A stretch of DNA of 64,000 nucleotides, taken from assembly GCA_963714015.1 (NCBI GenBank), contig OY970223.1:2080001-2144000 (forward strand), read 5' to 3'. A model generated the notes under the pieces. It saw nothing but the letters and a program-made list of their open reading frames with translations, did no database searches and was not told the DNA's origin. Source of the DNA: Vulcanimicrobiota bacterium. Lineage in GTDB: Bacteria; Vulcanimicrobiota; Vulcanimicrobiia; Vulcanimicrobiales; Vulcanimicrobiaceae. Shown here one piece after another: positions 2,830 through 16,111 of this stretch. A program made the position numbers and the translations under genes. Numbering within the stretch: position 1 is the first letter of the stretch; each line of letters starts with the position of its first letter.

Positions 2830-3402
2830 TTGCATCTAGTCTGGCTCGCCGTTAGCAGCTCGCCACGCAGCTGGCGCCCTGGCAGCAGGCTGAAAAGTGT
2901 GCCGCAAAGATGTAAGCGCCGGGGGTTCGACCCCGATCGCTGCGCCCGATTCTTCGAAGGGCGCGAGTACGAGGTAGACGACAAGCGATCCGAGTCATGG
3001 GTTTCCATACTCGCAAAGGTGGAAGACGAGTACTTTCACGTGCTTAGGGACGACGAAGACCCGCAATTTATGAACGTGCGGCTGCGATACACGCTCGGGA
3101 CCCTCCGGCGTTGGAAGAAGCGACGTCATAAAGCTGGCGAATCATGTAAACAGAGCTGGAAAATCGACAAGGCGATCGTTAATTTCTCAGATGAGGGGGC
3201 CATATGTGTTTTTCAATTCGAGTTTCTTGTGTTTGAGCACGAGGCATTCGAGAAAGCATTCGATCCCGTCCGCGAACACCTCAGCGGCGTGGCCAAAGAA
3301 TTTTTCAACCTCAAGTTGCGAAGTGCCAACCCTACGACATGGTCTGGGCCTATAATGTACCCATGGAACAGAACGATGCGCTCCGCAACCGCCGCGCCTT
3401 GA
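2830..3402 (+). CDS. YbjN/T3SS-chaperone-fold-like hypothetical protein (start uncertain, possible compensated frameshift)
   Basis: FFEGREYEVDD...YFHVLRDDEDPQF...WKIDKA...FEKAFD; alternate frame at ~3105-3150 reads SDVIKLANHVN, which fits the fold better. Confidence 0.45.
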   Translation: MHLVWLAVSSSPRSWRPGSRLKSVPQRCKRRGFDPDRCARFFEGREYEVDDKRSESWVSILAKVEDEYFHVLRDDEDPQFMNVRLRYTLGTLRRWKKRRHKAGESCKQSWKIDKAIVNFSDEGAICVFQFEFLVFEHEAFEKAFDPVREHLSGVAKEFFNLKLRSANPTTWSGPIMYPWNRTMRSATAAP

Positions 3403-3842
3403 AGGCGCTCCTCGACGCTAACGGTTACCGTTCCCATCGCATTAGCGATTCCGGCTACGAGATACCTTTCGCGGGAAAGTTCCGGGACTGGCATATCCGT
3501 GCGAGAATTCACAACGGCTGGCTTTTGCTCAACACCTATTTCATGGAGGTTCCGGAAAAAGGCCCGCAGCGTAGTGCGTTGCTTGAACGTATGCTCGAAA
3601 TGAACGACGTCATGAATGTTGCGAAGTTCAGCAAGTCAAAGGAAGTACTCAGCCTGGACTTAGAGTATCGCGAAGAACATGCCGATGCTGCGGCGTTTAA
3701 CGGGCTTGTATCGCTAATGCACTCTCTGTGCGAGGAGTACTATCCGCAGTTGTTTCGGATTGCGTCAGGCGACAGCGCGATGGAGTCCTTGCAACAAGCA
3801 TTTCAAAGGCCAGCGCTCTCGACGCAATCCGACATCGGTTAA
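3363..3842 (+). CDS. YbjN-domain / CesT-like chaperone-fold protein
   Basis: ALLERMLEMNDVMNVAKFS...LSLDLEY pattern; TATAAT ends 6 nt before the ATG. Confidence 0.7.
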   Translation: MEQNDALRNRRALKALLDANGYRSHRISDSGYEIPFAGKFRDWHIRARIHNGWLLLNTYFMEVPEKGPQRSALLERMLEMNDVMNVAKFSKSKEVLSLDLEYREEHADAAAFNGLVSLMHSLCEEYYPQLFRIASGDSAMESLQQAFQRPALSTQSDIG

Positions 3843-3985
3843 CGCTCGTGTTCGGCGCACATCTGCTCCGCCAGTTTCCCCGTACTCCACTGCCGCGGCG
3901 GGTACACGATTCTGGCGTCCGCTCCGAAGCCGAACGTCCAACGAACGACCTCACCGACATCGCTCACGGTGAACGCCATCTTCGC
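3839..3985 (-). pseudogene. 3'-end remnant of a WYL-family regulator (WCX domain)
   Basis: AKMAFTVSDVGEVVRWTFGFGADARIVYPP vs ATMTFIVGDVGEVVRWALGFGIDAKVVAPA in the WYL gene at 15140-16111 (19/30 identical by hand). Confidence 0.8.
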
Positions 3986-3998
3986 CTTATTGGCCGTC

Positions 3999-4025
3999 GT
4001 ATCGTATACCGATACATGATATAAT
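3999..4025 (+). promoter_or_regulatory. higBA promoter with palindromic candidate HigA operator
   Basis: GTATCG-N5-CGATAC (3999-4015) next to extended -10 TGaTATAAT (4017-4025). Confidence 0.65.
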
Positions 4026-4031
4026 TTTTGC

Positions 4032-4334
4032 TTGGGAGAACGGTTTGGGGATGAGGAAACATGGTTGATCGCAGAGGGGGAGGCAACGAAAGCCACTCGG
4101 CGGGTACTCCCGCAAAATCTCCACGAGGTTGCTCAGACGCGGATTGGCTTTGTGCTACAGATTCGAGCGCCACAAGACTGGCGTCGTTTATCCGGGATTC
4201 AAAATGCTGCGGGGACACCTGCGCGGCCGTACCAATTCCGTATCGGCGGCGCGTATCGCGTTCGGTTCCAGTGGCAAAACGGCCGGGCCGCGAACGTCGT
4301 GGTTGGCGACTTTCACGATGAGGACGGAGGATGA
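4032..4334 (+). CDS. higB: HigB/RelE-family toxin (divergent)
   Basis: FGDEETWLI...YQFRIGGAYRVRFQWQNGRAANVVVGDFH; ATGA overlap with the downstream antitoxin. Confidence 0.75.
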   Translation: MGERFGDEETWLIAEGEATKATRRVLPQNLHEVAQTRIGFVLQIRAPQDWRRLSGIQNAAGTPARPYQFRIGGAYRVRFQWQNGRAANVVVGDFHDEDGG

Positions 4335-4657
4335 AAACTATCGCTGAAGTGACTGAAACGCTGCCGCGCAAGCGACGGCCTACACACCCGGGGACTGCAC
4401 TACGCGATATTATCGAGGAGCACGGCCTCACACAGCAGGACTTCGCCGATCGACTCGGCATCGCGCGGCACCGGTTGAACGAGATCCTGAACGGCAAGCG
4501 TAGCGTAACGCCGGACACGGCACTGCGCCTCGGGCGCGTACTCGGGACGAGTCCGGACGTATGGCTGAATATGCAGCTCGCGTGCGATGTCTGGGACGCA
4601 ATGCATGCGCCCACCGCCAAGCAGATCGCGCGCCTGAAGCCGCTCGCCATAACGTGA
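4331..4657 (+). CDS. higA: HigA (VapI) antitoxin
   Basis: PTHPGTALRDIIEEHGLTQQDFADRLGIARHRLNEILNGKRSVTPDTALRL...WLNMQ. Confidence 0.92.
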   Translation: MKTIAEVTETLPRKRRPTHPGTALRDIIEEHGLTQQDFADRLGIARHRLNEILNGKRSVTPDTALRLGRVLGTSPDVWLNMQLACDVWDAMHAPTAKQIARLKPLAIT

Positions 4658-4898
4658 AGGATTACCGGCTACAACGCCCCAGGCCCCATTGCCATCCTAA
4701 ATGCAATCTAGGGCACTCGGACTGGGTACTCACTGAACGGCCGTTGAATCGAATGGGAATTGCGGAGTGGAAGCGCTGCGCTGCCAAAATGCTTTCCGAT
4801 CTGAAGCGATTCGTTGCCCTCCGCGACGACGCCCTGTTCGTTGCGGGGAACCGTTAACAATGGCTAACGGAACTTATGCGGTTTAACTGGTCCTACGG

Positions 4899-5649
4899 AT
4901 GATCGGAAAGAAACAGCCCCCCTCCGGCACGTTCGACTGGGATCGTCGCGACTATTTACGGGATAATCAGTGCTGGACAAGTGGCGACATCCTTGCCGAG
5001 GATCGCGTGCTTGCAGCATGGGGTAAGTACCGCATCGTGTACGGTCCATTCGACGTACCGCCCACGCCGAAAGCGAGGATCATTCTTTTAGGGCTGACGC
5101 CCGGCTTCGCGCAGTTAAAACTGGCAAATGAGGTGGCTCGCGATGCGACGGCGACAGGCACGGTTGACTGGTCGGACATCGGCAGCAGAATAAGAGAGCG
5201 GGCGGCCTTCGCTGGGCCGATGCGAGTAAATTTGGTTGCCATGTTGGATAAGCTCGATGTTCATCGAGAGCTAGGCCTGAATACATGCGACGAGCTTTTT
5301 TTGCCTGACGTGCAGATTGCCAGGACGACCTCGGCGCTGCGATATCCCGTCTTCATAAATGGGGACTCCAACTACCACGGTGATCGCGCCATCACTACGG
5401 CTCGGCCCTTCAAAGAGATGCTCGATCGAATCCTCGCTCCTCAGACTTGCCGCAATGCCGGATGAGATGATCGTGCCGTTTGGCCCCTGCGTGGAGTCGA
5501 CCTTGGAGTACCTTCGGGCGAGCGGGCACATCAGCGAACAGCGCGTGCTGCGTGGATTTCCGCACCCTTCCCGAGCAAACGGCCATCGCGCAAAGACGTT
5601 CGAGCGCAATTTCGCCCGTATGCGAGAGGTCGTCGCGTCATGGCGCTAG
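4899..5649 (+). CDS. Uracil-DNA glycosylase superfamily protein (frameshift at ~5445)
   Basis: ARIILLGLTPG motif A, AFAGPMRVNL, TTSALRYPVF and C-terminal FPHPS motif B across two ORFs; removing A5445 restores LAPQLAAMP. Confidence 0.75.
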
Positions 5650-6088
5650 CGGCGCCTATCGCACGGGGAGCGTCGGAAAAGGATGGAGATTCACTTCTCG
5701 CCGACCTTATGCCGTACCCATGCCATGACCGTCAGTCCTGGCCGTATGACGGCATTTGCGCATATTCGACCCGAGCAATATACGAAGCGGCGATGCGTCC
5801 CAGCGGATTGCGGTCCTACGCGACAAGGTTGCGACGCGCCAATGCAGACTTGTTGTATGCAGCGGCAAAGCGACTGGACAATTTTCGAGCAGACTCTTCC
5901 CGTCGGTGTTTTTGCCGAATCCGTCCGCCCTTCAAGGTTGCGAGTCAGGATGAAGAAGAATGGTGCTTTCGCCGCATTTTAGCGGGCGTTACTTTAACAC
6001 GGAGCAGCAACTGAACGCTTTCGCGCGAGACGGCCTTAAGCGAAGTCAGTACGTAAGTTCTCAAAAGCCGAACCAGAGGGCGGCCGAA

Positions 6089-6853
6089 ATGGCAAACACG
6101 AACTATTATAAGACCCACGTCGAACCGTACGTTCGAGCCGAGTTGGAACGCCGGCACGGCGTCCGATTCGAGTCCAAAATATTAAGGCTCACGACGGGAG
6201 GAACGCACGAGTTCGACGCCGTTGCATTGGATGGCTCCATAGTGGCCAGCATTAAGTCGCTTTCTGGAAAGACCGCATCAGGAAAGCGACCGGCGGCGAA
6301 ATATTCGACCTGTCTCGCTGAACTGTACTTTCTCTCGCTCGTGGAATCACCGCGCCGCATCCTTGTCCTCACCACGCCGGACTGGCACACGATGTTTACG
6401 AAATACATCGAAAACCGCCTAGCCCCTGGGCTTGAAATAGAACTCATTCATCTTCCGTCGGAGATCCAACAAGAAGTCGACCGCGTGAAGGGGTTAGCCA
6501 GTAATGAGGTCTCCCTTTCATCCGTTGTCGCAGTTGCTGAAGCGATTCCGAAACCGAGGCCTCCAAGACTGTTGAAATCAGCGCGCGTCGTATCTGCCGG
6601 CCCGGCGAACGGCTGTCGCGATGAGATACTGAAGGCTGCCGCCCACCTTGGTTCGTTGGGGCAAACAGATTTCACGCCGGATGAGATAATCCGCACTCTA
6701 CGCGACCGCGGCACAAGGTACGCGGAGTCTACCATCCGCACGCACGTCGTTTCCGTCATGTGCAAAAACGCGCCCCAAAACCATTTGACTGCGTACGCGG
6801 ATCTCGAGCGGGTTGGCCACGGACGCTATAGGCTGCTTGGACACGTCGAGTAG
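6089..6853 (+). CDS. PD-(D/E)XK-fold nuclease-like domain plus C-terminal winged HTH
   Basis: GTHEFDAVALDGSIVASIK; C-terminal CRDEILKAA...FTPDEIIRTL...YAESTIRTHV...ERVGHGRYRL. Confidence 0.65.
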   Translation: MANTNYYKTHVEPYVRAELERRHGVRFESKILRLTTGGTHEFDAVALDGSIVASIKSLSGKTASGKRPAAKYSTCLAELYFLSLVESPRRILVLTTPDWHTMFTKYIENRLAPGLEIELIHLPSEIQQEVDRVKGLASNEVSLSSVVAVAEAIPKPRPPRLLKSARVVSAGPANGCRDEILKAAAHLGSLGQTDFTPDEIIRTLRDRGTRYAESTIRTHVVSVMCKNAPQNHLTAYADLERVGHGRYRLLGHVE

Positions 6854-7028
6854 GCTAACATCTGCGACCTAAGTCGCGGCCCGTGTGCTCTCTTCATATA
6901 CACGCGGTTGCCGGCGTTCGTACCGCCCGCTGCTCTCTCGAAAAGTTAACAAACCGTCCCAGGCTGCTCACCCCGGCCGGAGCGAATAAGCGCCGCAACA
7001 AAATCACCATTGCATCAACGGAGTGGGC

Positions 7029-8867
7029 ATGGCAATCACGGCACCGCCGGCGTCTTTAGACGACGCCGTTCTTTCGCATTATCGTCTCGTCGCGCCGGTC
7101 ATGGAGGCCAATTTCGGGAATATCCCGATCGTCTGGACGACGTACTCAAGACGCGATCCACACGCCGTGGCCACGTGGCACCAGCAGTGCTTCGGCCATT
7201 ACTCGCACCTGAGCGCCGAGCATTTGCAACACCTCGTCAGCATCGGGGCGCAGGAGTTCTTCTCATGGTTTCCGATAGCGGAAGATCCCGAGCGATGCCG
7301 CTTTCTGCGGTTCTTGCTCGAAGCGCCGAATGTGCCTAAATCAATGCTCGTCGAGGCCGCGCACGCGCTGCGTCAGGAATTGCTAAGCGACGGTCGAGAG
7401 TCACTTCCGCTGCTTGCGTCCGGCGACGGTATTACGCTGTGGGTTCCTGTTGCCGATGGGCCGGACTACACACAAGCGCGCACGTATTGCCATTTGATCG
7501 CCGCGCGCCTCATCGCAAAGCATCCCAACCTGGTTTCGCTAGCGCCGAATACGCATGTCGACGGGTGCGTGCACCTGCACGTTTCCTCGAACGCGGTGGG
7601 CCGCTGCAGCATCATGCCGTATAGCATCCATCACCAAGGGCGCCACGTTGCCATGCCGCTCGAATGGGACGAAGTCTCCGAGCAAAACCTGCATACTCCA
7701 TCGATTGAGAACTTTGCAGCTCGCTTCGCCGAGCGCGGCGATCTCTTCGGTGCACAGGTCGCCGCCATAAAAGCATTGCCGCTGCCGGCGGAACCGAAGG
7801 AATCGTCAATAATGGCGGCCGGCGCCGGCTCCTCTCGTAACGCGAAAGGTGATGACATTCGTGCAGTTATCGCCGTGCTCTCTGATGGAGTTCCTAGGAC
7901 AATTCAGGAGCTCCAAAAAGAGATCGCCGCGCGCAAACTCATTAAGGCTCCGAGCCTCAACAGTCTGGCCGCGGCGCTAATCTCGTTCATTGAGCGGCTT
8001 GAGAGCAAGGGCCGCAAGCCGCCGATCATTCAGGACTTCGATAAACGCTATCGCCTGAATCAACCGCCCGACAATTGGCCGCTCCAGCCATGGACTGAGC
8101 CGACCCTGTCCGACGAAATGCAGAAGGTCGTCGATCGGTTGCGCGCGACGTCTAAGGGCGACCAGCCCACAGCCTTCGAGCAGGCGGTTTGCGACGCGCT
8201 GGCCGCGCTTAATTTCTCGGCCGTACATGTTGGCGGTAAGAAAGCGCCGGACGGATACATTGATGCTCCCCTCGGCACACTCGGTTACCGCGTAATGATT
8301 GAGTGCAAGTCTGGGGACGCTGACCATCCGAACATCTGGGAGGCGGCGAAGTTTAAGGACCAGTATGGCGCTCAATACTGCATGCTGGTCGCACCCTTTG
8401 TCGGGGACGAACGCTTCATTCGCGAGGAAAGCCAGACGCATGGGGTGAGCACTTGGAGTCTCGGCGATCTCATAACGGCGCTGACGTATGAGTTCACGCC
8501 GCTCGAGCTCGAGGCTTGCTTTGCTCCCGGTGTGGCAGCCTATGACGTTCTCACCGATCTGAAGTGGTCGCGCCGGCATGGGCAGGTTAAAGATCTAAAA
8601 ATTATGGCACAGATTATTCAATCCTCCGGCTGGGTGACGCAGCGTGCCGCGCTGGAAGCGGGAAGTTCCAAGGATGCCCCGCTGCTAACAGAAGATGCGG
8701 CTATGCTGCTCGTTGATCAATATCTCGCGGCGCAAAATTGCAAAGCGTCGTGCACCCGCGAACAGGTACGCCTGGCGTTCGAATATCTGACCAATCCGCT
8801 CGTCGGCGTCGCAGTTTGGACGGATGCGACGAAGACGGCGATCGTGGTCGTTTCGCCGCCGCAATAG
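7029..8867 (+). CDS. Fusion: degenerate LigD-type primase-polymerase domain, wHTH and Mrr-like restriction endonuclease
   Basis: PolDom-like YRLVAPVM, NAVGRCSIMPYS, VAMPLEWDEV, RGDLF; endonuclease motifs AFEQ...PDG...IECK. Confidence 0.8.
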   Translation: MAITAPPASLDDAVLSHYRLVAPVMEANFGNIPIVWTTYSRRDPHAVATWHQQCFGHYSHLSAEHLQHLVSIGAQEFFSWFPIAEDPERCRFLRFLLEAPNVPKSMLVEAAHALRQELLSDGRESLPLLASGDGITLWVPVADGPDYTQARTYCHLIAARLIAKHPNLVSLAPNTHVDGCVHLHVSSNAVGRCSIMPYSIHHQGRHVAMPLEWDEVSEQNLHTPSIENFAARFAERGDLFGAQVAAIKALPLPAEPKESSIMAAGAGSSRNAKGDDIRAVIAVLSDGVPRTIQELQKEIAARKLIKAPSLNSLAAALISFIERLESKGRKPPIIQDFDKRYRLNQPPDNWPLQPWTEPTLSDEMQKVVDRLRATSKGDQPTAFEQAVCDALAALNFSAVHVGGKKAPDGYIDAPLGTLGYRVMIECKSGDADHPNIWEAAKFKDQYGAQYCMLVAPFVGDERFIREESQTHGVSTWSLGDLITALTYEFTPLELEACFAPGVAAYDVLTDLKWSRRHGQVKDLKIMAQIIQSSGWVTQRAALEAGSSKDAPLLTEDAAMLLVDQYLAAQNCKASCTREQVRLAFEYLTNPLVGVAVWTDATKTAIVVVSPPQ

Positions 8868-8974
8868 GTTTGGAGCACTAGCCGAATCTCAGGTCCGGTT
8901 TGTTTCGGGCAAGGCAAGGACGGTAAGGCGCAAAACCGTCTTGCCGCAGCTCGTCCATCGCGGGAACGAGCAGT

Positions 8975-9122
8975 GTGCCGAAGAAACGCGACGTGCGGCG
9001 AATGCTCCTGGCTGACGATTGGGAACACCAAGCCCGGGAAGGTCACGCTTTCGGGGAAGGATAGTCTTGAGTTACCGGACGGCACTTGGAAGAATATTCG
9101 GCGTCAGGCAGGTTGGAAATGA
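8975..9122 (+). pseudogene. hicA: HicA toxin with internal deletion of the GSH catalytic segment
   Basis: GTG start VPKKRDVRRMLLADDWE joined out of frame to TKPGKVTLSGKDSLELPDGTWKNIRRQAGWK*; ATGA overlap with hicB. Confidence 0.8.
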
Positions 9123-9331
9123 GCAAATACGCGGTGGTTATTGAGAAGTCTAGTAACGGATACGGAGCCTATGTTCCCGACCTTCCGGGTTGCGTCGCCG
9201 TTGCTGAAACCGCGGATGAGGTAGAGGATCTTATTAGGCAGAGCATTGCGCTACATTTGGCCGCCCTACGCCAAGACGGCGATCCCGTTCCGGAGCCCAC
9301 GACGCGTGTTCGCGAATTGGAAGTCGCGTAG
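9119..9331 (+). CDS. hicB: HicB antitoxin
   Basis: MSKYAVVIEKSSNGYGAYVPDLPGCVAVAET...DGDPVPEP. Confidence 0.92.
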   Translation: MSKYAVVIEKSSNGYGAYVPDLPGCVAVAETADEVEDLIRQSIALHLAALRQDGDPVPEPTTRVRELEVA

Positions 9332-9534
9332 CGAAGAAGCGTCGAAAAATCGTTGCACTGCGAGGGATCTCTGCCGACGCGTCCTCGCGCAATTGAATTC
9401 ATGCGTCCGGTGCGCGGCTCGATGGCCGCTAATGTTTGCCGTCCGACGCGATCTAGGCCATTCTTACCAAAGGAGCGCCTCGGAACGCATCTAACCGTAA
9501 TCTAAAGCTTCCTGTTTTGAAGGGGTGGGCATTT

Positions 9535-11580
9535 GTGTTTGCACCGCGTCGTACGATTGTACTCTGCGTTACTTTGGGCGCGCTGGCCCTCCTAGCCGCA
9601 GGATGCTCCCACGCGGTCAGCAGCGCGCTTCCGCCCCGAACTAATTCGGTCAAGCGAGCCTCGATCGTCTATCGAGAAACGCACGCCGTCCCTCCGCGGC
9701 TCGGACAAGGCTCGCACGTAAGCGCGAACGCATCGTATCGCGGCGACGTTACGACGCTGCCGGCGAACTTGGCATTTCCGGCTGGTGTAGCCTATAACCC
9801 CGCAAGCGGTGCGCTTTACTTCATCACCGGTTCCGGCGAATATCAGCTTGTCGAGCTTGCGAAAAACGGCGCCGAAATCGTGCTCGCCTCGCTGCCGTTC
9901 CAGCCGACCGCCCTCGTCTACGACGCTGCAACGAAACTCGTCTACGTAACCTCGCCGTACAATGAATCCGGCTATCAGTACCCGTGCGTCGTCGCCGTCG
10001 ACTCAAGCGGCAATATGACCGTTCTTGCCGGCGGGACCGCAAACGGCCATACGGACGGGCAAGGTTCGGCAGCGACATTTGCGTCGTTAAATGCGATAAC
10101 GATCGACGCGAAAGATGGTGCCCTTTACGTTGCCGACAGCGATCGCATACGTCGTATAACTACTGCGGGCGCCGTTACGACATTTACACCTGCGAACTCC
10201 ATTTCGGCCAACGGCCTGGCATGGAGCAAGGTCGACGGAAACTTCTATGCGACGGATGCGCCGGAGGACGAAATCAAATCAATAACCCCGAACGCGGCTA
10301 TCAAGACGATTGCCGGCCAATGCCTCGGGGGTGGTCCCTCCTCATGTGCCGAGCTTCAGCGCGACGGGGCTGGGAAGAAGGCGCTATTCGCCGGGCCCGA
10401 AGGAATTGCCGTCTCGCCGACTACGGGCGATCTCTATGTCGCCGATTTCGGAAACAACTCGATTCGCGAAGTGACGCCGGCGGGCCTTACGTCGACACTG
10501 GCCGGCAACGGGCTGGCGGCAAACGTCGACGGCGCCGGGCTGAACGCCGAATTCGATGCTCCCTGGGCGTTGACGATGTCCGGCAATACGCTGTACGTCG
10601 CGGACTCCGACTTGAATCTGCAAAAGTCCGCCGTTCGCGAGGTAACGACGACAGGCAGCACGCCGCCTCCGCCCCCAACGCCGATTACGTATTTCGATAC
10701 GGTCACGCCCGGCGCGGAGCCGTTTGCCATCGATTCGCGCTCGACGAACGCGACCACAATGTGGTACAGCGAGTTGACGCGCCGCGTCGCGAGTCTGACT
10801 ACCGCGGGAAAGAGCACCGAATACACGACGACGTCGCAGAAACCGTCTGATACGCCGCAGGATATCGTCCTGGGCAGCGATGGCACTCCATGGTTCTATG
10901 ATGGCGCACAAGGCTTGATTCAGCATCTTGAGGCCAATGGGAGCATTCAAGGATTCAGCCTGCAATTCGAGATTTGCTGCGGTGCGCCGTTATGGCCCGA
11001 TAGCCTGACCTACGGCCCCGACGGAAACGTGTGGCTGATCGACGGCAGCGATATCGATTCCGTTACACCCTCCGGCACGGTTACCCCGGTCAAAGGGCCG
11101 TCGAGCGACTCGAGCACGATCGCTTTCGGGGGAGACGGTACCATATGGCTGTCCGGCAGCGGCTCCGAACTTACGCAAATCGATCGCACCGGCAAGGTCT
11201 TGGCAACGTATAACGTTCCGGTCAATTTCATTACGGAGGCGCCCGACGGGAACATCTTGTTCACGCAAAATGATGCCGTCGGGGAAATCGATATCAAGAC
11301 GCGGCTCGTTACCATCTACCCGATTTACGAGCAACTTCCGGGGTGCCAACCGTCCCAGTGTTCGCGCTACATCGGCACCATCACGACCGGTTCCGACGGC
11401 GCCTGGTGGTTTACGGAAGGCATCGGCTACATCGGCCGTCTCGATCCCAACGGCGGCTTCACGGAATACCAAATTTTGGCGGCTCACGCAAAGCCGTTCG
11501 ATCTCGTCTCGGGTCCGGACGGCAACCTGTGGTTCACGGATACCGGCGCGCAAAAAATCGGCAAGCTGGCGCTGCAGTAA
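9535..11580 (+). CDS. Lipoprotein with NHL-repeat propeller and Vgb (virginiamycin B lyase)-like propeller
   Basis: Lipobox LAAGC; NHL repeats (PEGIAVS..GDLYVADFGNNSIR); Pro linker; Vgb repeats (GPDGNLWFTD). Start 9517 or 9535. Confidence 0.85.
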   Translation: MFAPRRTIVLCVTLGALALLAAGCSHAVSSALPPRTNSVKRASIVYRETHAVPPRLGQGSHVSANASYRGDVTTLPANLAFPAGVAYNPASGALYFITGSGEYQLVELAKNGAEIVLASLPFQPTALVYDAATKLVYVTSPYNESGYQYPCVVAVDSSGNMTVLAGGTANGHTDGQGSAATFASLNAITIDAKDGALYVADSDRIRRITTAGAVTTFTPANSISANGLAWSKVDGNFYATDAPEDEIKSITPNAAIKTIAGQCLGGGPSSCAELQRDGAGKKALFAGPEGIAVSPTTGDLYVADFGNNSIREVTPAGLTSTLAGNGLAANVDGAGLNAEFDAPWALTMSGNTLYVADSDLNLQKSAVREVTTTGSTPPPPPTPITYFDTVTPGAEPFAIDSRSTNATTMWYSELTRRVASLTTAGKSTEYTTTSQKPSDTPQDIVLGSDGTPWFYDGAQGLIQHLEANGSIQGFSLQFEICCGAPLWPDSLTYGPDGNVWLIDGSDIDSVTPSGTVTPVKGPSSDSSTIAFGGDGTIWLSGSGSELTQIDRTGKVLATYNVPVNFITEAPDGNILFTQNDAVGEIDIKTRLVTIYPIYEQLPGCQPSQCSRYIGTITTGSDGAWWFTEGIGYIGRLDPNGGFTEYQILAAHAKPFDLVSGPDGNLWFTDTGAQKIGKLALQ

Positions 11581-11594
11581 GGGAGAAGAAGCTC

Positions 11595-13683
11595 GTGCTA
11601 AGATCGAGTAGCAAGAAGTTTGCGGCAGCGCTGAGTTGCATACTGATTATCGCTCTACAGGGCTGCGCGCAAAAAGTGGGAAGCGGCGTGGTGCCGGCAA
11701 TTAAAGCTCACCAACCGGCGCACGCATCCCTTGCCGTCGTCCGTCACACCGTGCACCTGGACGCGCAGCGGAACGCACTCGGCGGCACGCACGTTGGAGG
11801 GAGCGGATATCGCGGAAACGTGGTTACGCTGCCGCCATCGCTCATAAGCCCCACGGACGTAACCTACGACCCGGACGATGGAAACGTCTATGTCCTTTCA
11901 GAGATCTCCGGGCAAAACGCCTATCAGATTCTAAAGATAACACCGGCCGGCGTGGCGACCACGTTCGCGAAGCTTGGACCACTGGTATACGGCATTGTTT
12001 ACGACCATGCCACGCAGTCGTTTTACGCGACGAGTCCGTACCTGCCGCCCAACGATTATGCGGGCGTCTACGCTATCACGAGTGCGGGTAACGTGTCGAT
12101 TCTTGCGGGAGGCTCGTCGTGGGGCCAGCAAGACGGTCAAGGACAAGCGGCAAGTTTTTTGAACCCGACCGGAATCACACTCGATGGTGCTAATGGGACG
12201 CTGTACTTGGTCGACAGCGATCGAATCCGCGCGGTAACTCCGGGAGGTGCGGTCACGACGTTGACGCAGCCCGGTTCGATCGGCGGTGAAAGCAGTGATG
12301 TCCGAGCCGGCATTGTCTGGAATCCCACAGACGGCAACTTCTACGTGGCCGCCCCGGCTACCGACAGCGTTCAGCGCGTGGCCTCCACAGGAGCGGTGAG
12401 CGTATTGGCCGGGCAGTGCGTGGCCAATCAGAACCAACAGTGCGCGCCTCTGGAGCGTAATGGGCCCGGCACGAAAGCTTTGTTCGCGACGCCGACGGGC
12501 ATCACCGTAACCGCGGCCGGCAACCTTTACGTCGCCGACAGCCAGAACAATGCGATTCGCGAAGTGACGACCGCCGGCATGGTCAGCACATTGGCCGGGA
12601 GCGGAAGAACGGGATCGGTCGACGGCGCCGGCTTGAACGCCGAGTTTAGTGCGCCGACCTCTCTTACAACCGTCGGCGGAAAACTCTACGAACTCGACTC
12701 GTCTTGGAACGGTGGAGCGCTGCGTACGGTCACGACTGCCGGTTCCGCGCCGCCGCCGCCTTCTTCCTTAATCACAATGTACGAAACGGCAACGCCGGGT
12801 GCGCAGCCGTTTGCCATCGATTGGCGGGCTCCGGCGAAAACGCTGTGGTACACCGAGTTGACCGGGCGCATCGCAGCAATCACTCCCGCGGGGCAGAGCA
12901 CGGAATATCAGATAATCCCACATCCGCGGTTTTCTACGCCGACCGATATTGCACTTGACGGCAAGGGCACGCCGTGGTTTTACGATCCGCCCGACGGCGT
13001 TTTGTCGCACCGTTCGGGCGGGGGAAGGGTCACGTCGTACAAGCTCAACTATCAGTACAATCAAGGGCCGCCCTCATTACCCGATTCAGTTGCCTACGGC
13101 CCGGGCAACACGATGTGGCTGACCGAGTTCCAGCTTGCCGATTCCGTATCGTCGGAGGGCGTGCTGAGCAGACTTCACGATAAACGGCTTGTTCGGCGAC
13201 GGAAATCCAATTGCGTTTTCCGGCGACGGTTCGTTGTGGATGTACAACAATGCGTACCCCACTTCACAGATCGTCAAGATGGACACGCACGGTAACGTCC
13301 TCGACACATACGACTTCGCAGTGAAGTTCATTACCGAGGCGCCCGACGGGAACATTCTGTTCACGCAGGCCGATGCAATCGGTAAAATCAACGTCGCCAC
13401 CGGCGTTATCGATTACTATCAGATCTATCAGCCGGTTCCGGGGTGTCAGAGCTACTGCTCGCGCAACATCGGCACAATCACGGTCGGCTCGGACGGCGCA
13501 TATTGGTTCACGGAAAATGCCATCGGCTACATCGGACGCATCGATCCGAACGCGGGTTTTAGCGAATACCCAATCCTCGCGGCGCACGTCAACCCGTTCG
13601 ACATCGTCCCCGGGCCGGACGGCAATGTCTGGTTCACCGATACCGGCGCACAGAAAATCGGAAAGATCAAAGTGAAACTGTAG
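11595..13683 (+). CDS. Tandem paralog NHL+Vgb lipoprotein (frameshift at ~13172)
   Basis: Lipobox ALQGC; colinear with the upstream gene; deleting A13172 gives VLSSFTING and joins the two ORFs. Confidence 0.85.
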
Positions 13684-13886
13684 CAGGCCTCGGCTCCTGA
13701 AGATTCTTGCGCGCCGCAGAATTGATGTTGAGATCATTCAGCGACATGGGAAACGCGGCAAGTTGTGATCGAAGCGCGTGAGCTTTACCGCACTGCGGGG
13801 AGGGGCCTCGATAAAAATCGCTATGAGCCCGTCGGGTCTCCGAGCCGTGCCAAGCCTCTGGCGCCACGATGCGCTAGGATTTGCCC

Positions 13887-14613
13887 GTGACGTGGCTCAT
13901 TATCGCCCTTATCCTCTGGTTCGGCGGCAAGCTTCTCCTCAAGGCGACTGGCGCAGACAAGCCATACTTCCTTTGCCGCAAGTGCGTACGAATTACGCAT
14001 GGAAGCAGCAGTTGCAAGTACTGCGCCGACGCTGTTTCGCTGGTTGAGCAAGACGACCATCTCCACGTGCGCCTCGATTTTGAGTTTTCCGGTGAACGAA
14101 TCAAAATCGTTCAAACACTGGAGATGCTCTCGGCCGAGCTGAAGTGCATTGCGGATGCTTCCGAACTACCCCGGCCTGCGCCGGTTCGCGCAGTAGCCAC
14201 GCCCGATGTGAGGCAAGCACTGCTGCCGCTGATTGCGCAGCTTCTCGGGCCGGCTGGCTACCGTTTTCGAGCAGGCGCAGCAACGGTTCGAGCAATCAAG
14301 CTCGGCGACGGGATCCCCCCAAATGTTCTGCGATGCGTATCGGTATCTCTTGGGGCAGATCGTCGATGCAGAACGAGCGTTTGCGGCGGTCAATATTCCG
14401 CCGAACCTATACGCGACCGCCAAGGCTTTTCATGGTGTTCTTCAGTCAATCCGTGGGCAGCTTGCCGCATGGCCGGCGTCATTGGCGGCAGATGCCGGCG
14501 CGGTCAGGGGACAGGAGTACCATGGAGTTCTGGCCGTATCGTGCGACGTCAGCGCGTTCTATCGCGCATTAAGCGGCGAAGTTGAAATATGCCAGGCGTT
14601 GCGCACGCGATGA
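13887..14613 (+). CDS. Membrane-anchored hypothetical protein with CxxC-CxxC Zn ribbon (frameshift at ~14244)
   Basis: N-terminal hydrophobic helix; CRKC...CKYC; two overlapping ORFs join next to AGCT 14239. Confidence 0.55.
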
Positions 14614-14622
14614 AGTAGCGTT

Positions 14623-14928
14623 CTAGACGCCGGTTGTTTCTCGCAGAGGTTGAATTTCACGTTCGATTTGTTTACGTAGAGTGTTCTTGGCGGAGTCCAA
14701 ATCATAACGCGTTTGGAGCGATAGCCAAATTTCCGGTCCGGTTCCAAAAAAGCGGCTCAGCCGTAGCGCCGTGTCCAGCGTAATCCCGCGCTCACCCTTG
14801 AGGATTGCTCCGACGCGCGTTGCGGGAACGTGAATTTTCATCGCTAGGGCATTGGCGCTCAACTCGAGCGGCATTAGAAAGTCTTCAGAGAGGAGCTCCC
14901 CGGGATGGACGGGGCCAAATGTTTTCAT
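14623..14928 (-). CDS. higA: HigA (VapI) antitoxin
   Basis: PVHPGELLSEDFLMPLELSANALA...GERGITLDTALRLSRFFGT...WLSLQTRYDL. Confidence 0.93.
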   Translation of the reverse strand: MKTFGPVHPGELLSEDFLMPLELSANALAMKIHVPATRVGAILKGERGITLDTALRLSRFFGTGPEIWLSLQTRYDLDSAKNTLRKQIEREIQPLRETTGV

Positions 14929-14972
14929 TATGTGTGCGGTTTCCAGCTAGTTCTAAAGACAACAAAGTCACA

Positions 14973-15143
14973 TCAATGATAGTCAACAATGGTCACGTTG
15001 TAAGCGTCGCCATCCCTCCAAACGAAGCCAATGCGATACGTTTGGTTGATCCGAATCGAGTGTTGTCCAGCTCGATCCCCGGAAAGCTTCTCGAGCTGTA
15101 GGCCAGGGCCTCGCAAAGCGTGCAGCGATGTAATTTCATTCAG
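14973..15143 (-). pseudogene. higB: 5'-truncated HigB toxin
   Basis: Own translation LNEITSLHALRGPGLQLEKLSGDRAGQHSIRINQTYRIGFVWRDGDAYNVTIVDYH*; no in-frame start; begins at the WYL stop codon. Confidence 0.85.
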
Positions 15144-16111
15144 AGAACAGCGTGTTCGTCGTAAAGTCCGACTAAGGCATCCGCGATGCCTCGGGCGCAG
15201 TCAACGGCCTCCGCCGGCGCGACGACCTTGGCATCGATGCCGAAGCCGAGCGCCCAACGCACGACCTCGCCGACGTCGCCGACGATGAATGTCATCGTTG
15301 CCGATCCGTCCGCGTGCGTGTCGATCTCTTGAGCGCGCTGCCATTGGCGTGAGGTTGCCGAAGGGGCGAGCGCGGGCGAAATCCATACGGAAACGCGATG
15401 CTTCTGCGTACCCTGAATAAAACCGAGCACGTCGTCGTTCTGATAGTGCGCAGGGATCGGCTGCGGCGAGAACGAGCCCGCCCGTTTGACGGGCGGTGCG
15501 ATGCTATCGAGCGCGTAGTACTTCCAGTTTCGGGCGGCAGGATCCCGGGCCAGCAGATAGTAGCGGCCGGAGCGTACAATCGCGCACCCCGGCTCGACGC
15601 GCCGCTCTTTGCCCGAGTAGCGAAACGTCACGCGGGCGTTGTTGGCCCAGGCGGACTGCAGTTCGTCAAAGATCTGCGCCACGCGGCTGCCTTGGAGCAG
15701 CGCCGGTTGTAGAAAGCGCAAGAAGCGGCGATCGTCGCGCGACTCTTCGCCTTCAATAGATTGGAGCTGCGCCTGCACCGGCGGTCCCAGGGCACGGCCG
15801 ATGTCCCGAATCAGCGAGCGCAGCGCGCGGCTGCTCTTGTCCAGCGCGGTCGGCCGGCGATCGAAGTCCAAGAGGCGGACGACATCGTGTTCGCTCTTTT
15901 CGGCGATGCGGAAGCCGGCGCGCTCGCCGATCGCGCGCAATTCCTGCAGATCGCGTAAGATGGTGCGCTCCGATGCCTCGTACTCCTCGCACATGCGGCT
16001 CAGACGCACGAACTTGTTGCGCACCAGTTCGAGCAGAATACGGATCTTGCGTTCCGTCGCACCGCTGGGCTCCCCGGACTGACGGCCTTTGCCGCTAATC
16101 GCTTTGGGCAT
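15140..16111 (-). CDS. WYL-domain transcriptional regulator (HTH-WYL-WCX)
   Basis: N-terminal wHTH SERTILRDLQEL; WYL domain VTFRYSGKERRVEP...GRYYLLA...KYYALDSI; WCX VVRWALGFG. Confidence 0.9.
   Translation of the reverse strand: MPKAISGKGRQSGEPSGATERKIRILLELVRNKFVRLSRMCEEYEASERTILRDLQELRAIGERAGFRIAEKSEHDVVRLLDFDRRPTALDKSSRALRSLIRDIGRALGPPVQAQLQSIEGEESRDDRRFLRFLQPALLQGSRVAQIFDELQSAWANNARVTFRYSGKERRVEPGCAIVRSGRYYLLARDPAARNWKYYALDSIAPPVKRAGSFSPQPIPAHYQNDDVLGFIQGTQKHRVSVWISPALAPSATSRQWQRAQEIDTHADGSATMTFIVGDVGEVVRWALGFGIDAKVVAPAEAVDCARGIADALVGLYDEHAVL

Follow-up and report, generated by a model that had tools for sequence, protein, structure and literature searches.

A LigD-type polymerase domain without its catalytic residues, carried on a restriction-type nuclease in Vulcanimicrobiota

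What does a polymerase domain of the LigD type do once its catalytic residues are gone and it stands at the front of a nuclease? The question is raised by a single gene in a 64,000-nucleotide stretch of a Vulcanimicrobiota bacterium genome (assembly GCA_963714015.1, contig OY970223.1, positions 2,080,001 to 2,144,000), which is referred to here as the window. A first-pass annotation of the window, made from the letters alone, had proposed that the gene encodes a LigD polymerase domain (PolDom) with an archaeo-eukaryotic primase (AEP) fold that has been repurposed as a sensor and gates a nuclease. Our reading, to which we assign a probability of roughly 0.5, is that the product is a solitary, single-polypeptide restriction-type endonuclease without a methyltransferase, carried as an accessory gene and probably directed against foreign DNA, in which the non-catalytic AEP domain is regulatory.

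The only long open reading frame (ORF) at the locus spans 7023-8867 on the plus strand (window coordinates), and a GGAG ribosome-binding site at 7020-7023 lies five bases 5' of the likely start codon. From the N to the C terminus the protein consists of a degenerate PolDom, a winged helix, a PD-(D/E)xK nuclease, and a second winged helix; the earlier domain list (PolDom, winged helix, nuclease) was therefore right as far as it went and lacked the last of these. The full-length AlphaFold2 model, based on 39 homologues, has a mean predicted local distance difference test score (pLDDT) of 87.5 and falls below 50 only at residues 1-6 and 256-272. The public protein collection holds one identical (100%) sequence, P0002, with no name attached, and the source annotations of family members read either 'hypothetical protein' or, from JGI, 'DNA primase'. 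In a scan of positions 5500-9600, promoter-like sites were absent and terminator-like ones no more frequent than expected by chance. No RNA dataset is listed as carrying the gene, and the one DNA run that is listed has a share of 0.06.

Table 1. Positions, in window coordinates, of the gene, its domains and motif remnants, and the variable segment that holds it. Fractions count homologues.
Feature	Position	Strand	Remarks
Whole gene	7029..8867	+	612 aa + stop; likely start ATG 7029
Degenerate LigD polymerase-domain (AEP) fold, residues ~10-250	7056..7778	+	Pfam PF21686; Foldseek
Motif I remnant, R94-F-L96-L-E98-A99	7308..7325	+	L96 38/39, E98 36/39, R94 39/39
Motif II remnant, A130-S-G-D-G-I-T136	7416..7436	+	His lost; family consensus D-G-x-G-G-x-A
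Motif III remnant, V181-H182-L-H184	7569..7580	+	H182 38/39, H184 36/39
Flexible linker, poorly conserved, residues ~251-271	7779..7841	+	pLDDT <50 at 256-272; mean pairwise identity 0.13
Winged helix 1, residues ~272-345	7842..8063	+	VIA-align Z 8.1-8.8 to small winged-helix domains
PD-(D/E)xK nuclease, FokI-cleavage/HindIII/BspD6I/Mrr type, residues ~361-517	8109..8579	+	Catalytic E384, D408, E425, K427
Winged helix 2, C-terminal, residues ~518-612	8580..8864	+	VIA-align
Strain-variable ~11.2-kb segment holding the gene	3980..15180		Absent at the syntenic site of same-genus G210

The first ~250 residues had been assigned to the LigD PolDom, and this assignment holds. Pfam LigD_Prim-Pol (PF21686) matches residues 62-240 with an E value of 6.5e-19 (68.9 bits, cut-off 27.4), and a sequence search of the PDB returned the LigD polymerase domains of Mycobacterium tuberculosis (2iru, E 2.2e-7), Methanocella (5dmu), and Pseudomonas aeruginosa (2fao). 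When the AlphaFold2 model of the N-terminal domain was searched with Foldseek, PolDom structures ranked first (2r9l_A, E 3e-13; template modelling (TM) scores of 0.72-0.74), followed by Prim-PolC and only afterwards by other AEPs. The superposition with 2irx gives a TM score of 0.74 and a root-mean-square deviation (rmsd) of 2.6 Å over 265 columns. The NCBIfam equivalog model ligD_pol (TIGR02778) scores 54.1 bits, far under its cut-off of 214.7, and the other NCBIfam LigD models likewise stay below theirs. Because the Pfam, PDB sequence, and Foldseek matches agree, we conclude that the N-terminal domain is a genuine homologue of the LigD PolDom. It shares with PolDom (PF21686; 2IRU, 2R9L, 2FAO) both the fold and a detectable sequence homology, and keeps such signature residues as the Tyr of the first helix, the W-x-P strand, the Asn of the xxN motif, and the P-Y-S turn.

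What has been lost is the active site. In the genome's own canonical PolDom (locus L001, 1375-2322), which is followed by an ATP-dependent ligase gene, the motifs read FDLDP, SGGHGMH, and LLDYNQN. Fifteen family N-domains were aligned with this domain and two other canonical PolDoms using MAFFT, and the canonical F-D-L-D-P aligned to F95-L96-L97-E98-A99, S-G-G-H-G-M-H to A130-S-G-D-G-I-T136, and v-L-L-D to V181-H182-L183-H184. The window protein thus has other residues in place of each of the three metal ligands and of the motif II His, exactly as the first-pass annotation had described. The changes that set the family apart from PolDom are D-x-D to L-x-E in motif I, His to Thr or Ala in motif II, and Asp to His in motif III. 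In the M. tuberculosis PolDom, according to PMC8656161, Asp137 and Asp139 of motif I bind metal and Ser172, His178, and Arg244 hold the nucleotide. The same loss is seen family-wide. A hidden Markov model of family positions 60-250 gave 171 domain hits, of which 150 were complete at eight key positions; the 21 rows with gaps at these positions were dropped. The pattern D,D...H...D was kept in 17/17 canonical LigD/PolDom controls (P0083-P0098 and the genome's own), whereas the D-x-D pair was kept in 0/133 family rows. On this sequence evidence the N-terminal domain is predicted to be incapable of polymerisation.

Among the 39 homologues the mean pairwise identity of the AEP domain is 0.40, compared to 0.13 for the linker, and nine of its residues (Y18, P33, A74, W80, P82, R94, N188, A189, and P197) are invariant. 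These values indicate that the AEP domain is still constrained and kept under selection although it is, by its residues, non-catalytic.

The C-terminal half was described in the first-pass annotation as an Mrr-like nuclease with intact motifs. The C-terminal 350 residues were modelled separately from an alignment (A2) of 23 sequences, mostly stand-alone forms, which gave a pLDDT of 89.6 and a predicted TM score (pTM) of 0.80. This model was compared with 48,161 PDB representatives using VIA-align. The nuclease aligned with HindIII at Z 14.1 (rmsd 2.8, 151 residues aligned), with N.BspD6I at Z 12.2, and with the small subunit of R.BspD6I at Z 11.8. The match to FokI was at Z 15.1 with 213 residues aligned over chain positions 302-579, which comprise the last winged helix and the cleavage domain; the rmsd of this superposition is 13, owing to a different placement of the domains. 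Foldseek found the same enzymes (FokI, E 1.6e-7; HindIII, 1.8e-4), and FokI was the sole match of the A2 profile among PDB sequences (E 0.02), with H-x-G-G..P-D-G aligned to HLGGSRKPDG and E-C-K to D-T-K of FokI.

The active-site residues of the nuclease are intact, as claimed. The motifs TAFEQ (E384), APDG (D408), and IECK (E425, K427) hold four residues that are invariant in 39/39 homologues, as are H400, G402, D412, E438, K441, E467, and H471 in the same region, and no other part of the protein is as well conserved as the nuclease (mean pairwise identity 0.59). Mrr_cat (PF04471) matches 17/23 relatives of the C-terminal module (C-module) at E <= 0.1 (best 9.4e-7), and P0120 (24.7), P0235 (27.9), P0118 (21.8), and P0179 (22.3) exceed its cut-off of 21 bits; the window protein reaches 16.5 bits with the full protein and 18.2 bits with the C-module. 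FokI_cleav_dom matches 1/23 of these relatives, and the ESM-Atlas neighbours of the nuclease module fall in Mrr_cat, FokI_cleav_dom, and AlwI clusters. Taken together, these results establish that the nuclease core is a FokI/HindIII/Mrr-class PD-(D/E)xK domain with an intact predicted active site.

Winged helices stand on both sides of the nuclease. For the first of them, a HARE-like winged helix-turn-helix had been proposed; the winged helix is confirmed by VIA-align (residues ~269-345) and the HARE assignment is not, as HARE-HTH (PF05066) gave no Pfam match at E <= 0.01 in the window protein and matched 0/23 C-module relatives at E <= 0.1. One ESM-Atlas neighbour cluster does carry HARE-HTH (score 0.84), which we treat as a lead only. 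The best structural matches of winged helix 1 are the Z-alpha domains of ZBP1, African swine fever virus (ASFV) I73R, and PKZ, the cullin WHB domain, and ScpB. It is followed by a conserved FRxNxPxDxWP linker in which N344, D348, W350, and P351 are invariant. Winged helix 2 resembles cullin WHB, an RNA polymerase III subunit, and YceH (Z 9.0-9.4), as well as ORC/Cdc6 (Z 8.3). As a separate observation, four of the top neighbours of winged helix 1 are Z-DNA-binding Z-alpha domains (ZBP1, ASFV I73R, PKZ, and cyprinid herpesvirus 3 (CyHV-3) ORF112; Z 8.1-8.8); the scores are middling, the likeness may be an effect of small domain size, and we regard it as a lead only.

How tightly is the dead polymerase domain tied to this nuclease? 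Fusion to the dead AEP domain is the commonest arrangement (95/123 near-complete C-modules), followed by the C-module alone (25/123) and the C-module behind other N-termini (3/123). A check for split genes covered 18 of 80 loci. In 4/12 C-module-only loci (L069, L070, L074, and L082) an AEP-like gene lies immediately upstream on the opposite strand, head-to-head, and the split AEP genes of L070 and L074 carry the family pattern LEDGGAHH at the key positions; the remaining 8/12 loci contain no AEP-like gene. In a FastTree phylogeny of 122 C-modules, the alone and fused forms are interspersed, and well-supported branches force at least 14 changes between them. This tree is without bootstrap, has an arbitrary root, and leaves out rows with fewer than 300 profile positions, rows shorter than ~280 residues, and the duplicate P0001. 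Because the two parts are recurrently linked, either fused or as neighbours, they appear to work together; because the AEP part is often absent, it appears to be an accessory to a self-sufficient nuclease. Two of the three proteins with other N-termini, P0118 (696 aa) and P0150 (703 aa), show an unusual protease-nuclease fusion in which the winged-helix/nuclease/winged-helix module is joined to a thermolysin-type M4 peptidase with its HExxH motif kept.

The fusion is not confined to this contig, and its distribution is that of an accessory gene. A word-index protein search returned 97 proteins, of which 81 belong to the family (P0002-P0082, E <= 4.7e-51) and 16 are canonical LigD/PolDom proteins (E >= 3.4e-13). 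The family proteins carry the organism labels Candidatus Eremiobacteraeota, Baltobacteraceae, and Cybelea, with single Dormibacteraeota and Limnocylindrales entries. An exhaustive search of representatives gave 980 matches at E <= 1e-3 and 107 at E <= 1e-30. In contigs sampled at one genome per species, 130 stretches encode a relative, and 80 of these were kept for the locus comparisons. Almost all of the 80 are from metagenome-assembled genomes of Eremiobacterota (Vulcanimicrobiota, WPS-2), and the few labelled Dormiibacterota, Acidiferrales, Limnocylindrales, or 'uncultured Burkholderia' may be binning errors. A profile scan of the phylum at E <= 1e-30 found a match in 149/401 genomes, a count that includes C-module-only matches and a few near E 1e-31 that are possibly canonical PolDoms, in 96/247 high-quality genomes, and in 47/116 genera. 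The 401-genome tallies, here and for Ku below, include genomes flagged as unpublished, none of which is cited individually. By taxonomic family the matches fall in f1 (135/296), f2 (4/5), and f3 (9/30), with 0 in 18 other families. The occurrence is patchy even inside genera (39/80 and 18/33), with up to three matches per genome and an in-frame stop in 12/150 among the matches listed. The gene thus belongs to an optional, movable family that is nearly confined to Eremiobacterota.

Further copies were observed in the course of these searches. The genome of the window has a second family member (L003, G000:C1:3329161-3332697, minus strand, ORFs 934-2202 and 383-985) that is broken between P-D-G and E-C-K by an apparent frameshift, so that it may be a pseudogene or the product of an assembly indel; its intact counterpart elsewhere is P0032. 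In another genome (G182:C2:3062-6089), a C-module-only copy and, directly adjoining it in the same orientation, a full-length copy with a single in-frame stop form a tandem pair.

The gene has no constant partner. Crude ORFs (longest non-overlapping, at least 70 aa) were called in the 80 loci and the first 20 kb of the window, and when the resulting 1155 ORFs were clustered by BLASTP, no cluster was linked to the gene across these loci; a conserved operon partner was rejected on this basis. The sole large neighbour cluster is a family of NHL/Vgb-lyase paralogues (19 loci), the next largest occurs in eight loci, and an LprI-like cluster stands beside the gene in five. The recurrence of NHL/Vgb-lyase genes near homologues probably reflects the sheer abundance of that family in these genomes. 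No DNA methyltransferase was found by Pfam among 133 ORFs directly flanking family genes. The earlier statement that neither ku nor a ligase gene lies nearby was borne out: neither is present within the 64-kb window, and a search with the genome's own Ku, ligase, and PolDom found Ku in 0/80 loci and ligase and canonical PolDom in 1/80 (L029). The gene is accordingly accessory, solitary, and lineage-restricted, without a methyltransferase, Ku, or ligase partner.

These features place the protein among, and also apart from, several known systems. As in FokI 302-579, a winged helix precedes the cleavage domain and the H-x-G-G...P-D-G and (D/E)-x-K motifs align; FokI, N.BspD6I or the small subunit of R.BspD6I, and HindIII are the best structural matches of this domain. 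Unlike FokI, the protein has no D1/D2 recognition domains and carries an extra C-terminal winged helix and the N-terminal dead AEP domain. A classical type II system is argued against because no methyltransferase partner was found (0/133 flanking ORFs). The protein resembles the Mrr-family and winged-helix fusion type IV enzymes described in PMC11037411, which likewise combine a winged helix and a PD-(D/E)xK domain without a neighbouring methyltransferase, and that text takes such a solitary arrangement as an argument for modification dependence. Here a solitary nuclease is flanked by winged helices, which are putative DNA-reader domains, and a cognate methyltransferase is missing from all 133 flanking ORFs. 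Mrr_cat is the Pfam family that most relatives match, with the window protein itself under the cut-off. Unlike the described Mrr and winged-helix fusion members, the protein carries an AEP domain; none with an AEP was found in the literature searched.

No named system had been recognised at the locus, and none was found here: PADLOC-DB v2, whose models presumably include Shedu, returned 0 families at E <= 0.01 for the window protein and six neighbours. The protein is not a Shedu member, since its nuclease is FokI/HindIII-like, with no DUF4263 likeness found, and no PADLOC model matches. Its way of working is possibly similar, as Shedu (SduA) combines a PD-(D/E)xK core with N-terminal sensor domains that can be exchanged. 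SduA is reported in two preprints (bioRxiv 10.1101/2023.08.10.552793 and 10.1101/2023.08.10.552762) to sense DNA ends.

Based on these comparisons, we propose the following working model for a restriction-type endonuclease with a regulatory AEP domain. The winged helices would position the protein on DNA, perhaps on DNA that is modified or of an unusual form, as Mrr-type type IV enzymes do. Cutting by the non-specific cleavage domain would follow once two copies meet, as in FokI. The dead AEP domain would serve as a non-catalytic regulatory module, through nucleic-acid or nucleotide binding or through oligomerisation, and would control when the nuclease fires. Such a module would be a separable accessory: the same nuclease module also occurs by itself, with a divergent gene of its own for the AEP part, or with an M4 peptidase substituted for that part.

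Several observations weigh against this reading. Most of the 133 flanking ORFs are ordinary or unannotated, so the gene does not sit in a classic defence island, and no PADLOC or PHROGs match ties the protein to a known defence system. The pTM of the full-length model is 0.53, too low to fix how the domains pack. Some of the C-modules counted as alone may be gene-call fragments on short contigs. The window protein is itself an unusual member. It has A130 and S131 where most homologues have Asp and Gly, it has H201 where 38/39 homologues have an Arg (aligned, in the P-Y-S-x-R turn, with the Arg that binds the nucleotide), and it sits on a long branch (0.69) in the C-module tree. Because it departs from conserved positions and lies on a long branch, its own AEP domain, aberrant within the family, may be decaying further.

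A more specific form of regulation is close to what was first proposed for this gene. In this form the dead PolDom would be a pattern-recognition module that has retained PolDom's capacity to engage either an end-binding protein (Ku/Gam type) or a DNA structure, be it a primer-template junction, a gap, or paired ends. Its pairing there would join two FokI-like cleavage domains and license cutting. We consider it doubtful. PMC8656161 describes Asn13, Lys16, and Lys26 of the M. tuberculosis PolDom as a 5'-phosphate pocket required for synapsis, and states that PolDom also contacts DNA and pairs up through loops. By sequence alignment, the N-terminal 20-40 residues of canonical PolDom, which hold the first two pocket residues, have no counterpart in the family, and the third pocket residue, Lys in the canonical 'TK' turn, aligns to D12 in the window protein and to a position that varies among family members. 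Sensing of DNA ends by the AEP domain in the manner of PolDom is therefore made less likely by the missing 5'-phosphate-pocket segment, although the loops through which PolDom also contacts DNA and pairs up leave it some likelihood. If the pattern-recognition proposal were true, the family would be a new class of single-protein immune nuclease with a recycled repair polymerase as its sensor, and a live M4 peptidase, or nothing, would take the sensor's place in the sister versions. The full-text literature searched yielded no account of a restriction-type nuclease to which a dead PolDom is fused; the coverage of that search does not extend to Iyer et al. 2005 (AEP superfamily), which might bear on this.

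The location of the gene in a variable segment leads to another explanation, namely that the nuclease is of a selfish or toxin-like kind. G210, a genome of the same genus, has the homologues of window positions 3354-3980 and 15180-16093 (a WYL/WCX regulator gene) directly side by side; ~11.2 kb, with the gene in it, is therefore missing from the syntenic site, and G210 has two family members elsewhere in its genome. An imperfect direct repeat (~3860-3990 and ~15170-15300, ~70% identical) marks both ends of the segment, and in its left copy the 3' end of the WYL/WCX regulator gene (15140-16111, minus strand) recurs in degenerate form. This setting would fit a mobile endonuclease, restriction-type or homing-like, that spreads through Eremiobacterota genomes and decays in them without benefit to its host, as would the several copies per genome, the in-frame stops, the patchy occurrence, the neighbourhoods that vary among loci, and the second, apparently frameshifted copy in the same genome. 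Against it, no integrase, transposase, or intein context was found by Pfam in the 11.2-kb segment, 0 relatives were confirmed among 44 pattern matches in IMG/VR viral contigs, and all four domains are strongly conserved over ~130 species genomes. The frameshifts may be assembly errors, as the canonical PolDom adjacent to Ku in this genome is also in two pieces. We therefore consider a selfish nuclease unlikely. Two related origins were rejected: integration at a tRNA, as there is no tRNA in the window, and a viral origin, as there are no confirmed IMG/VR relatives and a fold search of BFVD returned generic primases and restriction enzymes only.

Alternatively, the AEP palm may have been re-tooled, such that E98, H182, and H184, together with Asp130 in most members, form a new single-metal site with hydrolytic or ligand-binding chemistry alongside the nuclease. 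The replacements are conserved and non-random (Table 1; Asp at position 130 in 31/39 homologues), they persist in the wider set (E98 in 97/133 rows, H-x-H in 94/133), and they occupy the former metal-ligand positions; LigD's own phosphoesterase domain has a His-His-Asp manganese site, as given in PMC8656161. However, a deeper branch of the family (P0125, P0130-P0133, and P0138) has unrelated residues at these positions, the window protein has neither the Asp at 130 nor the family Arg at 201, and the spatial clustering of the residues is inferred from AEP topology only. Judged from these sequences, a re-tooled palm is very unlikely.

The origin of the domain in a non-homologous end joining (NHEJ) polymerase suggests one more explanation, an end-processing nuclease that is brought to breaks by PolDom-like contacts with Ku or LigD. 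The genome does have genes for Ku, a LigD-type PolDom, and ligase, with Ku at 0.82 Mb, the PolDom-ligase pair at 3.27 Mb, and the start of the window at 2.08 Mb, so that Ku is 1.26 Mb distant. Ku is also common in the same taxonomic families (269/296 in f1), and a ligase and a canonical PolDom are close by at one locus (L029). Ku is nevertheless found far more widely (318/401 phylum genomes) than the family, and no Ku match was obtained in six genomes that carry a full-length member (G029, G033, G077, G111, G279, and G281; completeness 91-98%, four at or above 95%), by which a Ku-dependent role is weakened as far as sequence matches can tell. With Ku adjacent in none of the 80 loci and the segment bearing the 5'-phosphate pocket missing, a role as an NHEJ accessory is the least likely of the explanations considered. 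It was also observed that the canonical PolDom beside Ku (G000:C1:819539-820331, L002; Ku 820500-820991, L005) is matched by Pfam as two pieces, each in its own frame (model positions 1-177 and 173-254), which suggests either a frameshifted NHEJ polymerase or erroneous indels in the genome's single-contig assembly.

The remaining neighbours in the window offer a thin context. The gene had been placed among toxin-antitoxin (TA) modules, and of this one HicB-like ORF and two Xre-type helix-turn-helix ORFs remain. The HicB-like antitoxin ORF (9086-9331, plus strand; PF15919, E 2.6e-11) has no detectable HicA partner, and no toxin was detected nearby by Pfam. Around the other family genes, the 133 flanking ORFs include scattered TA, defence, and mobile genes (AbiEii, HicA, HigB, a CAP12-type TIR, Fic, DUF4160, DUF6036, DUF4760, and an IS1595 transposase). 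Upstream in the window, a 297-aa protein (5960-6853, plus strand) has a terminal DUF7669 (E 4.1e-10), at its C-terminal end, as its sole annotation; it was rejected as a partner since it is not found beside homologues. Downstream, a 63-aa ORF (8824-9015) has no Pfam match, and three overlapping plus-strand ORFs (9517-11580, 11343-13295, and 13189-13683) all encode NHL/Vgb-lyase beta-propeller repeats and are possibly one large gene broken by frameshifts.

The family provides a clean, family-wide case in which a repair polymerase domain has lost its catalytic function and yet been selectively kept on a restriction-type nuclease, in a poorly studied and mostly uncultured soil phylum. If the AEP module does not control the nuclease, the family is still an unannotated restriction-like enzyme, and the labels 'DNA primase' and 'hypothetical' need correction. 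If it does, the AEP module would be a new kind of sensor among single-protein defence nucleases. The natural series of fused, split, absent, and peptidase-replaced forms makes the question of control directly testable.

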